Below the pieces are notes generated by a model, which saw nothing but the letters and a program-made list of their open reading frames with translations, was not told the DNA's origin and did not search any database. DNA of 57,951 nucleotides from Candidatus Heimdallarchaeota archaeon (GTDB lineage: Archaea > Asgardarchaeota > Heimdallarchaeia > Heimdallarchaeales > Heimdallarchaeaceae). How positions within the stretch are numbered: the first letter of the stretch is position 1; the number at the start of each line of letters is the position of its first letter. The stretch is from contig DXJF01000149.1 of NCBI GenBank assembly GCA_019057375.1, positions 1-57,951 of the forward strand, given 5' to 3'. The translations under genes were made by a program, and so were the position numbers. Below are positions 54,400 through 57,951 of this stretch, one piece after another.

Positions 54400-54493
54400 A
54401 AACTATCACAAACAAATCTGTCCTAGTTTAGATTTATTTAAGAGTTATTAAAAAAATGAAAGAAAAATAAAAAGAGGAAGGATTTACAATCCT

Positions 54494-54516
54494 TTACATT
54501 CTGCGGCCTCTACGGC
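54494..54516 (-). repeat. Orphan copy of the last 23 nt of rps11 (distal boundary repeat)
   Basis: ttacattctgcggcctctacggc vs ttacattctacggcctctacgac at 56823-56845 (21/23); encodes RRGRRM-stop on the minus strand. Confidence 0.85.
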
Positions 54517-54565: not shown

Positions 54566-55468
54566 TTATTCAAGATTTTCTCTATGCTGCCAATCATGAA
54601 ATCTCATCGCAAGAGGTATCACAGTGTTTTCAACTATTTCTATTGTGTCTTCAAGATGATTTAGAGTTGTAATAATCACTGGAACATAGGGAGATCTTTT
54701 CGATAATATGTTTTTTTCAGTTTCTATTAATTGATAATTATGAATTAGAAATTTAGTTTTGTAAAGATTTCCAGAAGTAATCTTTTCCGTAAACACATAG
54801 GACAATAAGTCAAATTTACGCCCTAGAATAACGATTGGAAGACATAAATCACCTACTGCTTCAATGGATTCTTTTCTACTTATTGGATATTTTTGACCAT
54901 ATTTCTCCTTCATATGCCAGTTTATACTGGATACTATTTGACCAAATCCTTTCTCTATTTTTTCTTTAATTTTATCTTTCGTATTTGGATAAATTATATC
55001 TGTACATATTATCGACTCGAATTCTTTAGTTAACTCCCCATACATAAACTCATAAATCCGATCAAAACCAGTCCAATTCTTGAACATCTCCATCACACTA
55101 TAATTATATAGTTCAATAGGATTAAAACCAATTATTGGTTCTTTTTCTTGTTGATCATACTGATCATTATACTTTACTTCTGCGTAAAATACTAATCTAG
55201 TCATTAAAAATCCCGTAATTCCTGGTTCAAATTCTTTATGTTTGAATATCTTCTGGGCAAAAACATCTAACTGTCTGTTTTTCTTCACTAACTCTCCTGC
55301 TTCCAATGCTGTGTCTTCATAAATTAATTCATCTACATCATAGCCTAATTTACTGAAGATTTTTCTGCTTTTATATTCTGTTGAACCAGCTTGTCTTATA
55401 ATTTTTTTAATAGTGTTTTCCTTCTCTTTATCCACTATTTCTTCAATTATAAACGATTTTTCTTCCAT
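54566..55468 (-). CDS. PD-(D/E)xK restriction-endonuclease-like protein
   Basis: Helix STEYKSRKIFSKLGYDV (E31), QLDVFA (D68), YAEVKY (E97-x-K99). Confidence 0.6.
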   Translation of the reverse strand: MEEKSFIIEEIVDKEKENTIKKIIRQAGSTEYKSRKIFSKLGYDVDELIYEDTALEAGELVKKNRQLDVFAQKIFKHKEFEPGITGFLMTRLVFYAEVKYNDQYDQQEKEPIIGFNPIELYNYSVMEMFKNWTGFDRIYEFMYGELTKEFESIICTDIIYPNTKDKIKEKIEKGFGQIVSSINWHMKEKYGQKYPISRKESIEAVGDLCLPIVILGRKFDLLSYVFTEKITSGNLYKTKFLIHNYQLIETEKNILSKRSPYVPVIITTLNHLEDTIEIVENTVIPLAMRFHDWQHRENLE

Positions 55469-55534
55469 CGATTAAAATTATGTTATCACAAATAAGAATG
55501 TTTGGAAACAAAAACTACACTCTACAGCTATATT

Positions 55535-56731
55535 TTAAACCTGTTTACTTATTTCCTCAGAAAATTCATCTAAGAGAGTTTGTCCTTTGAATTCCAGTCC
55601 TTTCTTCAATAACTGTACTTTCATTACTAGATTATCTACGAGATTCTGATTTTCATCTGTTCTTTTCTCCATTAACAAATCAACTATCTCTTGACTGTCC
55701 TTTGCTTCAAACCCTTCCTCCTCTTCAAACATCCCCTCAGCTTTACCGTAGAGACACCAGAACTCCACCTTCTCAGCTACTTTTGGGTATACTTTCAAAT
55801 CTTTCTCCTTGAATATCGCTTGAGTAGATCTCTTAGCATCAATGATTCTTATCGTATTATTTTCGTAGTATACAACTATTTCAGGCTGAATCCAACTCTG
55901 TTCTTCAATATCAGTAGTATCAATCTTAGGTTTCCACTCCCAATCTAAACCTTCTAACAAAACCTCAGCGATTTCTTTACACAGCTCTTCCCACTTGTAA
56001 GCTGTAGTTCTAGTAAACCAACAGGCTTCAGCTTTTTTGTGACCATACAAGTGACTTGGGTCAGCAAAACCCCTACCACAGTTCTCACAAACAAAAGGTT
56101 TCTCATCAGTGTGCATAGCAATAATGTGAAGTTTTAATCTTCTGGAATGAGAAAATGAAGCACCACAATCTTCACAGACATGAGGACGGTGGTTCTGATG
56201 AACTACCTTGATATGATCATTAAGATGTTGAGGAAGTTTAAAGGCGAAACCACATTCTTCGCAAACATATGACCGCTTATTAGAATGCAAGGAAATCAAA
56301 TGCTCTTTTAGATGTTGGGGTAACTTGAAAGCAGCACCACACTCTGTACATATGTGAGGTCTTAAATCCAAATGAATTGTCTGAACATGTCTTTGAAGAT
56401 TATCTTCTCTGAAGAAAAAAGAATCACAATGGAGACAAGCATATTTCTCTTTTTGTGTGTGAATAGAATTGATATGTCTTCTTAGAGATTTAGCTTGTGA
56501 AAATCTCTTACCGCATAGTTCACAAATATGTGCTCTTATCTTCTCATGAACTTCAATTAAATGACGATTAAGAGAGTCTTTTCTAGTTGTTGAGAAATCA
56601 CAAGAATTACATTGATAAATCTGATCTATTTCATGAATTGATTTTTTGTGCCTTGTAAGGATATCTTTTCGAGAAAATGATTTATTACAGATTTCACATC
56701 TATGTAGAGCTATTTCTTTTTTCTTTTCCAT
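55535..56731 (-). CDS. Tandem C2H2 zinc-finger array (7 C2H2 + 1 C2HC) fused to a PD-(D/E)xK nuclease-like domain
   Basis: Seven Cx2Cx12Hx4H units at a 29-aa period, eighth unit Cx2Cx12Hx5C, TDEKPF linker; C-terminal WEELC..(E248), QPEIV (P283-E284), IIDAKR (D298-x-K300). Confidence 0.85.
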   Translation of the reverse strand: MEKKKEIALHRCEICNKSFSRKDILTRHKKSIHEIDQIYQCNSCDFSTTRKDSLNRHLIEVHEKIRAHICELCGKRFSQAKSLRRHINSIHTQKEKYACLHCDSFFFREDNLQRHVQTIHLDLRPHICTECGAAFKLPQHLKEHLISLHSNKRSYVCEECGFAFKLPQHLNDHIKVVHQNHRPHVCEDCGASFSHSRRLKLHIIAMHTDEKPFVCENCGRGFADPSHLYGHKKAEACWFTRTTAYKWEELCKEIAEVLLEGLDWEWKPKIDTTDIEEQSWIQPEIVVYYENNTIRIIDAKRSTQAIFKEKDLKVYPKVAEKVEFWCLYGKAEGMFEEEEGFEAKDSQEIVDLLMEKRTDENQNLVDNLVMKVQLLKKGLEFKGQTLLDEFSEEISKQV

Positions 56732-56822
56732 TTATTTCTATAGAACTATCTAGATTTTCAAATAAAAACTCCAATAATACATAATAAAAGAAAAGAAAAA
56801 TAAAAATGAGAAAAGGACAAAA

Positions 56823-56845
56823 TTACATTCTACGGCCTCTACGAC
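56823..56845 (-). repeat. rps11 3' end (proximal boundary repeat)
   Basis: Matches 54494-54516 at 21/23 nt. Confidence 0.85.
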
Positions 56846-57578
56846 CGCCTTTTCTGCGACATCCGTCATGTGGAAGGGGGGTCACATCTTCTAGTCTTAG
56901 TATTCTCATCCCTGACCTTTTTAGTGCCCTTAATGCTGCTTGTGTTCCTGGTCCAGGTGTTCTGTTCTTATGTCCTCCTGGCGCCCTATAACGTACATAC
57001 AGCTGGTATATTCCTTTACTTTGCGCTTCTTGTGCTGCGGAGTTTGCTGCTTTCATCGCTGCATATGGACTTGATTCATTTCTGTCTGCTTTAACAAACA
57101 TTCCTCCACTTTTACGGCTGAATGTTTCAGCACCTGAAATGTCGGTGATATGAACGATAGTATCATTGTAACTGGAAAAGATATGAGCGACACCGTATTT
57201 AGAATCTCTTCTTCTTGATCTAGACCTAGCTTCAGATTCAGGTTTAGGTTTAGCTTCGGGTTCAGCTTTCTCTTCAGATTTAGCCTTTTCTTCGGGTTTA
57301 GCTTCTTCTTTGGTTTTAGATTTTTCTTTTTTAGGAGCTTCGGTTTTTTCTTTCTTGGGTTTAGCTTCTTCCTTTGCTTCTTTATCTTTAATCTCTTTAG
57401 GTTTCTTTGACTCGGCTTTCTTTTCTTCTTTGGAAGGTTCTGTTTTTTCTTGCTTCTTAGTAGTGGAGGTTTTCTTCTCTTTCTTAGGAACTTCAACTTT
57501 CTCTTCTACTTTGGGAGTTTCAACGTCTTCCTTAGTTTTCTTAGCCGATTCTTTCTTTTCTTTTTTATCTTCACTCAT
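56823..57578 (-). CDS. rps11: Ribosomal protein uS11 with an about 120-aa Lys/Glu-rich N-terminal extension
   Basis: [58 protein letters not shown]. Confidence 0.96.
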
Positions 57579-57586
57579 AAAATCAC

Positions 57587-57951
57587 CTACTTAGCTTCCT
57601 CCTTACTTTTGGCTAACAAATTCTTAGCCTCTTTGTTCATAGCTTCAGCAGTGGCAGGACCAATTCCTGGGACTTTGGAAAGATCTTCAACTGTAGCTTT
57701 AGCAATTTTATCGACTGTGTTGAAACCATTTTCTTTGAGAAGCATTGCTGTTTTAGCACCAATACCTTTAATCGATGAAATATCAGCTTTTGGTGCAATA
57801 GGTATTTTCTCTGCAGGTTTCTTAACAGGAGGTTTTTTCTTTGGTGCAGCTTCAGGTGCCGCTTTAGGTTTGACTTCAGCTTTTGGTTTAACTTCAGCTT
57901 TTGGTTTAACTTCAGCTTTTGGTTTAACTTCAGCTTTTGGTTTAACTTCAG
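57587..57951 (-). CDS. 3' part of an upstream gene (probably uS4, by synteny) ending in AEVKPK repeats and a helix-hairpin-helix domain
   Basis: Manual translation: (AEVKPK)n...[53 protein letters not shown]...stop at 57587-57589. The uS4 core is outside the window. Confidence 0.6.
57873..57951. repeat. 18-bp coding tandem repeat (acttcagcttttggttta x4.4, truncated by window end)
   Basis: Exact units at 57873, 57891, 57909 and 57927, partial unit at 57945; encodes AEVKPK. Confidence 0.9.

Follow-up and report, generated by a model that had tools for sequence, protein, structure and literature searches.

Engineered zinc-finger nucleases consist of C2H2 zinc-finger arrays joined to the cleavage domain of a restriction enzyme (FokI). 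Among natural enzymes, the intron-encoded PD-(D/E)xK homing endonuclease I-Ssp6803I reads DNA with the nuclease body itself. In the mobile endonuclease open reading frames (mORFs) of fungal mitochondria, an inserted C-terminus of the host gene is followed by the endonuclease and then by the native C-terminal remnant, with cases described for atp6 of Allomyces macrogynus and for atp6, atp9, cox2 and nad3 of Glomus (PMC3630166). C2H2 arrays are carried in Asgard archaea by the TniQ target selectors of Tn7-like elements (bioRxiv 10.1101/2025.07.27.667033). We found nothing relevant in the literature searched on a natural C2H2 homing endonuclease or a DNA-only natural zinc-finger nuclease. Here, we analyze a 57,951-nt stretch of a Candidatus Heimdallarchaeota genome (GenBank assembly GCA_019057375.1, contig DXJF01000149.1; hereafter the window), in which a gene at 55535–56731 on the reverse strand, next to the ribosomal protein S11 gene rps11, encodes a 398-aa protein (P0001) with eight C2H2-type fingers and a C-terminal nuclease-fold domain. 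On balance, we regard P0001 as a homing-type zinc-finger endonuclease that is carried by a cassette aimed at rps11, much like the fungal mitochondrial mORFs. With its cassette beside the very stretch of rps11 that its fingers are predicted to recognize, P0001 resembles a natural, selfish version of an engineered zinc-finger nuclease.

The finger array (56021–56698, reverse strand) was recognized by Pfam as eight zf-C2H2 stretches (E 2.6e-35; zf-H2C2_2, E 5e-35) and resolved by regular expression into seven C-x2-C-x12-H-x4-H fingers and a terminal C-x2-C-x12-H-x5-C finger. The fingers start at aa 12, 41, 70, 99, 128, 157, 186, and 215, and this period of 29 aa implies linkers of seven residues. 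The array thereby shows the features of Krüppel-type proteins, i.e., tandem C-x2-4-C-x12-H-x3-5-H units with linkers of about seven residues and constraint on the base-reading helix positions: contact positions −1, 2, and 6 do not vary among 25 orthologs (~390 aa), whereas the framework of fingers 1–4 is highly variable (1.6–1.85 bits). Over their whole length, fingers 5–8 and the nuclease core hardly vary among these orthologs (nuclease core, 0.39 bits). Identity between P0001 and its closest relative, P0050, declines from 100% in the tail and 94% in the nuclease core to 78% in fingers 5–8 and 51% in fingers 1–4, a gradient suggestive of exchange by recombination or of very fast diversification in the N-terminal fingers. 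P0001 is the sole multi-finger C2H2 protein of the 3.47-Mb genome, and the GC content of its gene (0.33–0.36) is the same as in the remainder of the window. According to Pfam, the gene is preceded by the S11 gene and followed, after an orphan open reading frame (ORF), by genes for an acyl-ACP thioesterase and an MBL hydrolase.

The C-terminal domain (aa 236–398; 55538–56026, reverse strand) represents an undescribed family, for which the fold neighbors and the conserved motif together establish a PD-(D/E)xK fold. An AlphaFold model (AF2) of aa 232–398 computed from the family alignment reached a predicted local distance difference test score (pLDDT) of 90.8 and has an alpha-beta-beta-beta-alpha-beta core; it superseded a poor single-sequence model with a pLDDT of 51. 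The predicted catalytic core (55832–55990, reverse strand) is formed by E248 (codon at 55988–55990) on helix 1, P283-E284 (55880–55885) at the start of strand 2, and D298-x-K300 (55838–55840 and 55832–55834) on strand 3. Conservation in the alignment of 36 family sequences peaks at these residues (WE, P[ED]I, and I[DE]xK): P283 never varies, and K300 is found in at least 90% of the sequences; the conserved positions as a whole are W247-E248, P283-(E/D)284, I-(D/E)298-x-K300, K307-D308, and F-W-x-L. The best Foldseek match is EcoO109I (E 2e-4), followed by restriction-like endonuclease (RLE) domains of R2 elements, Cdn1, AF1548, McrC, Card1, Bax1, and Can2. VIA-align Z scores were highest for AF1548 (9.2), Can1 (8.8), and Can2 (8.2), with R.BspD6I (7.5), EcoRII (7.2), and FokI (6.5) also among the matches, and nearly all of the top 50 structures belong to the PD-(D/E)xK superfamily. 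Based on this model, P0001 is predicted to catalyze metal-dependent phosphodiester cleavage. The domain had no family match in Pfam, NCBIfam, or PHROGs, no significant hit in a profile search of PDB sequences, and no tblastn match in a phage collection. A homodimer prediction of the nuclease domain scored 0.00, which counts neither for nor against dimerization.

These results agree closely with a preliminary description of this DNA, which had been made from the sequence alone. The seven C2H2 fingers and terminal C2HC finger that it placed at 56021–56698 with seven-residue spacing were recovered by both the regular expression and Pfam, and the archaeal gene setting that it noted is confirmed by S11, thioesterase, and MBL hydrolase as neighbors. 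E248, P283-E284, and D298-A-K300, its proposed nuclease residues, are correctly positioned and coincide with the most conserved family columns. The restriction-endonuclease-like fold that it had named beforehand as a structural check was obtained with a pLDDT of 90.8 and with neighbors that are almost all PD-(D/E)xK nucleases.

The gene is part of an insertion at the 3′ end of rps11 (56823–57578, reverse strand; Pfam Ribosomal_S11, E 3.4e-43), a feature absent from the preliminary description. In the close relative G018, whose flanking proteins are 94–97% identical, the thioesterase gene follows rps11 after 91 bp. In the window the same two genes are separated by 2.33 kb, and direct repeats flank this block: the terminal 21 nt of rps11 (56823–56843) recur at 54494–54514 with 20/21 identical positions, the adjoining 25 nt (56782–56806) recur at 54449–54473 with 88% identity, and the motif is found at those two places only in the whole genome. 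The upstream copy (copy L; 56782–56843, reverse strand), as defined by direct-repeat families D7 and D8 and by junction alignment, comprises the functional rps11 3′ end and about 40 nt downstream of it. The downstream copy (copy R; 54449–54514, reverse strand) is a remnant of the rps11 3′ end (20/21 nt; 0 expected by chance) that continues into native intergenic sequence. Copy R is 81% identical to the G018 empty site, as compared to 72% for copy L, which is attached to rps11. A third, degenerate copy (55511–55528, reverse strand; 15/18 nt, 0.10 matches expected in the window) begins 6 nt past the nuclease stop codon and occupies the same position in other species as well (L004, L008). Every gene between rps11 and the thioesterase gene in other species ends in its own rps11-end copy, and these passenger genes are mutually unrelated. 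G018 thus provides an empty site for the rps11 cassette, so that close relatives differ in its presence and the boundaries are precise. Contigs of four sequencing runs contained neither a direct joint between rps11 and the thioesterase gene nor a circular junction, and empty and occupied alleles were not seen together in the contigs of any one sample. One backward “joint” in these contigs is accounted for by the repeat itself.

The position of the insertion corresponds to the sequence that the fingers are predicted to recognize. A target for fingers 4 to 1, 5′-GNG GNA GNG GNG-3′, was fixed from the standard recognition code before searching. The contacts of fingers 1–4 (R-D-x-R, R-D-x-R, Q-x-x-R, and R-D-x-R) yield the code-predicted GNGGNAGNGGNG, which has a single match in the 58-kb window (0.23 expected), at 56870–56881 inside the 3′ end of rps11. 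For all eight fingers, the predicted 24-bp target (56858–56881, forward strand) reads 5′-GAC ATC CGT CAT GTG GAA GGG GGG-3′ from finger 8 to finger 1 and is antisense to the rps11 codons T-P-L-P-H-D-G-C, the most conserved S11 motif. The same site emerged from a code-free scan, in which the entropies of the 24 contact residues were compared to DNA column entropies in all 24-nt registers on both strands of 252 aligned nt: 56858–56881, in that strand and register, ranked first of 458 (r = 0.89; runner-up, 0.81). Owing to an offset between finger triplets and codons, the wobble base is opposite helix position 3, and codon positions 2 and 1 are opposite helix positions −1 and 6, respectively. Fingers 5, 6, and 8, which have an invariant His at position 3, face the two-fold pyrimidine wobbles of His, Asp/Asn, and Cys codons; fingers 1–4 and 7, which are variable at position 3, face the four-fold wobbles of Thr, Pro, Leu, Pro, and Gly codons. 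Variability at position 3 and wobble degeneracy are therefore concordant in 8/8 fingers. The nuclease (C-terminal) end of the predicted site faces the cassette boundary; rps11 homology of the remnant starts about 1–6 nt past the finger-8 edge, and the repeat boundary is a few to about 15 nt away. In silico, rps11 thus presents what is expected of a homing endonuclease target, a 14–40 bp site in a conserved gene beside the insertion point. No convincing inverted second half-site was apparent by eye near 56823–56857, where no systematic search was made.

The arrangement recurs with a second family member, this time at an unrelated gene. ZFN385, a C2H2 protein with H-x3-H spacing and TGEKPY/F linkers from species G013, is encoded within a 2.56-kb two-gene insert that is flanked by two copies of an 89-nt segment from the 3′ end of a ferredoxin-like (fixX-type) gene, and here the genome of the window provides the empty site. 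The code-predicted 22-mer, G NNN NGA ANG NGG GAC ANG GNG, has one match at the empty-site locus (L033:1715–1736; 1 mismatch, 0.02 expected), the predicted site being GTTTAGAATGTGGGACATGTCG. This match is unique in the whole genome of the window at ≤1 mismatch, and the reversed-pattern control gave 0. As the duplicated segment of the fixX-type gene starts at L033:1720, the predicted ZFN385 site is located at its beginning. The 22-mer had no match at ≤2 mismatches in the occupied G013 locus, because both copies have diverged there. At both loci, the predicted target coincides with the insertion boundary.

This anatomy is most reminiscent of the mORFs, in which an endonuclease gene is likewise inserted in the 3′ part of a conserved gene, with the functional end upstream and the native remnant downstream, the remnant is closer to the sequence of relatives than the functional copy (81% vs 72% here), and close relatives differ in presence or absence of the element. 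However, mORFs encode LAGLIDADG or GIY-YIG enzymes in organelles, whereas the Asgard gene resides on an archaeal chromosome, joins a C2H2 array to a new PD-(D/E)xK domain, lacks an in-frame fusion to the host gene, and is accompanied by serial scars with unrelated passenger genes. With engineered zinc-finger nucleases P0001 shares a tandem C2H2 array, predicted long recognition, and a C-terminal restriction-type PD-(D/E)xK domain (FokI, Z 6.5), but it is natural and has eight fingers on one chain. In the model the helix of the last finger continues into nuclease helix 1, so that cutting should take place immediately beside finger 8. The PD-(D/E)xK fold, a predicted target in a conserved gene, and predicted tolerance at wobble positions are features in common with I-Ssp6803I and other homing endonucleases, yet P0001 has a separate, modular finger array for recognition. 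The R2 protein also joins zinc fingers to a restriction-like endonuclease and belongs to a selfish, site-specific element whose target is a gene of the translation apparatus, as predicted here; R2 RLE domains rank 2–3 in Foldseek (E 2–3e-3), and a Cys/His knuckle directly precedes the nuclease domain in both. Unlike R2, the Asgard element has no reverse transcriptase or RNA intermediate, and at 12–16% identity homology is supported at the level of the superfamily. Pfam recognized only zinc fingers in the 398-aa protein and the neighboring genes encode no reverse transcriptase. The Asgard TniQ arrays represent another case of mobile elements that use eukaryote-like tandem C2H2 fingers to choose insertion sites at conserved genes, but those fingers are on TniQ and operate with a TnsA/B/C transposase (bioRxiv 10.1101/2025.07.27.667033), while here they are fused to a nuclease in cassettes of about 2.3–2.6 kb or less that lack TnsB, TnsC, and TniQ genes. 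The same 2025 preprint weakens the premise of the preliminary description that long C2H2 arrays are purely eukaryotic.

Members of the nuclease-domain family are rare. An exhaustive search of 1.84 billion proteins returned only 47 representatives, in which the domain is nearly always C-terminal and is preceded by one to nine C2H2 fingers, DUF4379 treble-clef arrays, multi-helix-turn-helix arrays, or a homing-endonuclease-associated repeat. Orthologs of P0001 are present in 20 of 24 species of the same Heimdallarchaeota genus, always directly adjoining rps11; elsewhere in the phylum they are only sporadic (27/400 genomes, 6/85 genera) and were not found in the other genera searched of the same family. 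The orphan ORF, the nuclease gene, and rps11 are also contiguous in independent assemblies from other studies, which together with synteny in 20/24 congeneric species excludes a chimeric or eukaryotic origin. The concern, raised in the preliminary description, that the gene might be a misassembled eukaryotic fragment is thereby settled. Its reading of the protein as a natural zinc-finger nuclease, with predicted catalysis, gains support from fold, motif, and synteny, and its estimate of about 24 bp of recognition is supported in silico by the code match and the variability scan.

The genome of the window also encodes a 523-aa paralog in which five DUF4379 treble-clef zinc fingers precede the same nuclease domain (G000 contig C12; L028:6885–8456, reverse strand). 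It is 37% identical to P0001 in the common domain and adjoins a gene for a 633-aa protein whose family is multi-copy, with as many as 15 matches per genome. The paralog is probably mobile too, because its neighbors differ in the congener G001. Its empty site could not be defined, as the 633-aa neighbor is multi-copy, and no flanking repeats were found at the DUF4379-fused paralog (L028, L029), where contigs are short or the region is repeat-rich.

It is attractive to propose the following course of events. The eight fingers would recognize a stretch of about 24 bp at the conserved 3′ end of the rps11 coding sequence (T-P-L-P-H-D/N-G-C, antisense strand), and the fused PD-(D/E)xK domain would cut beside finger 8. 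The gene would ride on a small, integrase-less cassette sited at the predicted cut position, which would provide the 3′ end of the host gene and leave older rps11 ends downstream as scars. Spread would likely proceed by cleavage of cassette-free rps11 alleles and their repair from a cassette-bearing copy, and self-cleavage might be limited because the wobble bases of the resident allele fit its own nuclease poorly. Catalysis, cut position, cutting of one or both strands, and mobility by homing are inferred. With regard to self-cleavage, position-3 residues match the wobble bases of their own host in 5/36 cases, as compared to 32% for alleles of other species (permutation P ~0.007), in a modest test that covered position-3 residues with a defined code in 10 related species and relies on a fuzzy code. 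This deficit of self-matches would fit nucleases aimed at other spellings of rps11. A simple co-variation of position-3 residues with resident wobble bases does not hold.

Several observations weigh against homing to rps11. The predicted 24-bp site is intact beside the resident gene in the window and identical to that of the G018 empty site, which leaves only the weak position-3 argument for immunity at rps11. Fingers 5–7 have non-canonical contacts (Leu or His at −1), so that the recognition code is weak for them. Presence of the nuclease gene at one locus in 20/24 species would also be expected of a domesticated gene or of vertical residence over a long time. Scars of the rps11 end accompany the passenger genes as well, although these have no nuclease, and how they were inserted is unexplained. 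At the G013 locus, the repeat copies are about as diverged from one another as from the empty site, which implies that the insertion event at this second locus is old. Finally, flanking repeats were sought at five further family members (L031, L032, L034, L035, and L036) and none were found on these short contigs.

The repeats themselves allow for an alternative in which the nuclease drives site-specific integration: staggered or paired cuts at the rps11 end would admit a small, possibly circular element with 60–90 bp of target homology, and the repeats would be target duplications. At about 66 nt and 89 nt, the direct repeats do resemble att-type or target-duplication repeats, the empty site of G018 has the look of a left/right hybrid, such as recombination between the repeats would leave after excision, and passenger cassettes without a nuclease also finish in rps11-end copies. 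However, neither circular junctions nor excised forms were seen in the contigs, transposase and integrase are both absent, and the mORF precedent accounts for the same anatomy without a new mechanism, which makes such a module rather improbable in our view. We give even less credence to the proposal that P0001 is a domesticated DNA-binding regulator, with fingers that bind the rps11 3′ end or another site, e.g., for regulation of the ribosomal operon, and a nuclease fold that is non-cutting or serves dimerization. Residence at one locus in most congeneric species and the intact site in the resident genome are in line with domestication, but residues of the catalytic motif are conserved in orthologs and distant family members alike, and the presence/absence polymorphism and gene-end scars suit a mobile element. 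The second member, with the same arrangement at an unrelated gene and a target that is lost in the occupied allele, is equally difficult to reconcile with a regulator, as is the exchange of DNA-binding modules within the family, which is typical of mobile nucleases.

The similarity of the fold to restriction enzymes and CRISPR-ancillary nucleases could also indicate a defense or restriction-type nuclease against foreign DNA such as viruses or plasmids that is located beside rps11 by chance. This is very unlikely, because no defense partner is nearby, no methyltransferase is encoded among the neighboring genes (S11, orphan ORF, thioesterase, MBL hydrolase), PHROGs and the phage collection gave no matches, and both predicted targets are in conserved host genes at cassette boundaries. 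An assembly chimera or eukaryotic contamination, which the eukaryotic look of the fingers might bring to mind, can practically be dismissed given the uniform GC content, the synteny of the locus in 20 congeneric genomes with independent assemblies that span it, and the presence of the nuclease domain in other archaeal fusions as well. The homing-type endonuclease aimed at rps11 thus remains our preferred explanation.

If cleavage is confirmed, P0001 would represent a new class of homing endonucleases with a partly readable recognition code and compact, single-chain 24-bp specificity, and its cassette would be a selfish element that tracks an essential gene via codon positions 1 and 2 and ignores the wobble bases. 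The family puts long finger arrays with canonical TGEKP linkers, predicted to act on DNA, into the archaea most closely related to eukaryotes, and Asgard finger arrays bear on the origin of the largest eukaryotic transcription-factor family. A broader and clearly more speculative proposal, which we consider possible but doubtful, is that Asgard archaea harbor a retargetable family of natural zinc-finger nucleases. Selfish cassettes of this family would exchange or rapidly diversify C2H2 fingers or swap whole arrays and so aim one conserved PD-(D/E)xK blade at the 3′ ends of different conserved genes (e.g., rps11 and a fixX-like ferredoxin gene), and mobile elements rather than transcription factors would have been an early or original use of long Krüppel-type arrays in the archaeal relatives of eukaryotes.

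Other genes of the rps11 cassettes have features of their own. Between the middle and last rps11-end copies, the window contains a 300-aa orphan passenger ORF (54566–55468, reverse strand) without a match in Pfam, NCBIfam, or PHROGs. It has only three homolog clusters and is present in only some of the species, with unrelated genes at this place in others. Across the three clusters D68 and (E/D)97-V-K99 are invariant and are located on hydrophobic stretches (LDVFA ... FYAEVKY), a motif that is PD-(D/E)xK-like; among named ESM-Atlas clusters, the nearest (0.83) is a PDDEXK_GAPS4 nuclease, no more than a lead. The orphan ORF may thus be a second nuclease from an older insertion. Several congeners encode a five-finger C2H2 ORF of 125–158 aa without a nuclease between rps11 and the nuclease gene (e.g., L007:382–831 and, on the reverse strand, L008:382–831), in the frame of the nuclease gene and with a true stop codon, TAA or TGA depending on the species. 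This ORF, which is absent from the window, could protect the site or be a remnant. Another passenger, a 248-aa secreted or membrane-type ORF (L008:2081–2827, reverse strand) that ends in YRGRRL, reads through a degenerate rps11-end copy (RRGRRM) and borrows the stop codon of that copy.

A cold-seep metatranscriptome library contains a 173-nt contig that agrees with the nuclease tail at 55598–55770 apart from one mismatch, a weak hint at transcription of the nuclease gene, with carry-over of DNA as a possible source. The S11 protein encoded at 56823–57578 has 251 aa, including an N-terminal extension of about 125 aa that is rich in Lys and Glu, as compared to 131–152 aa in other genera and some congeners (G027, G025, G004). 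Upstream of rps11, an ORF on the reverse strand (57587–57949) that runs off the end of the window encodes KPKAEV tandem repeats followed by two helix-hairpin-helix-like motifs.

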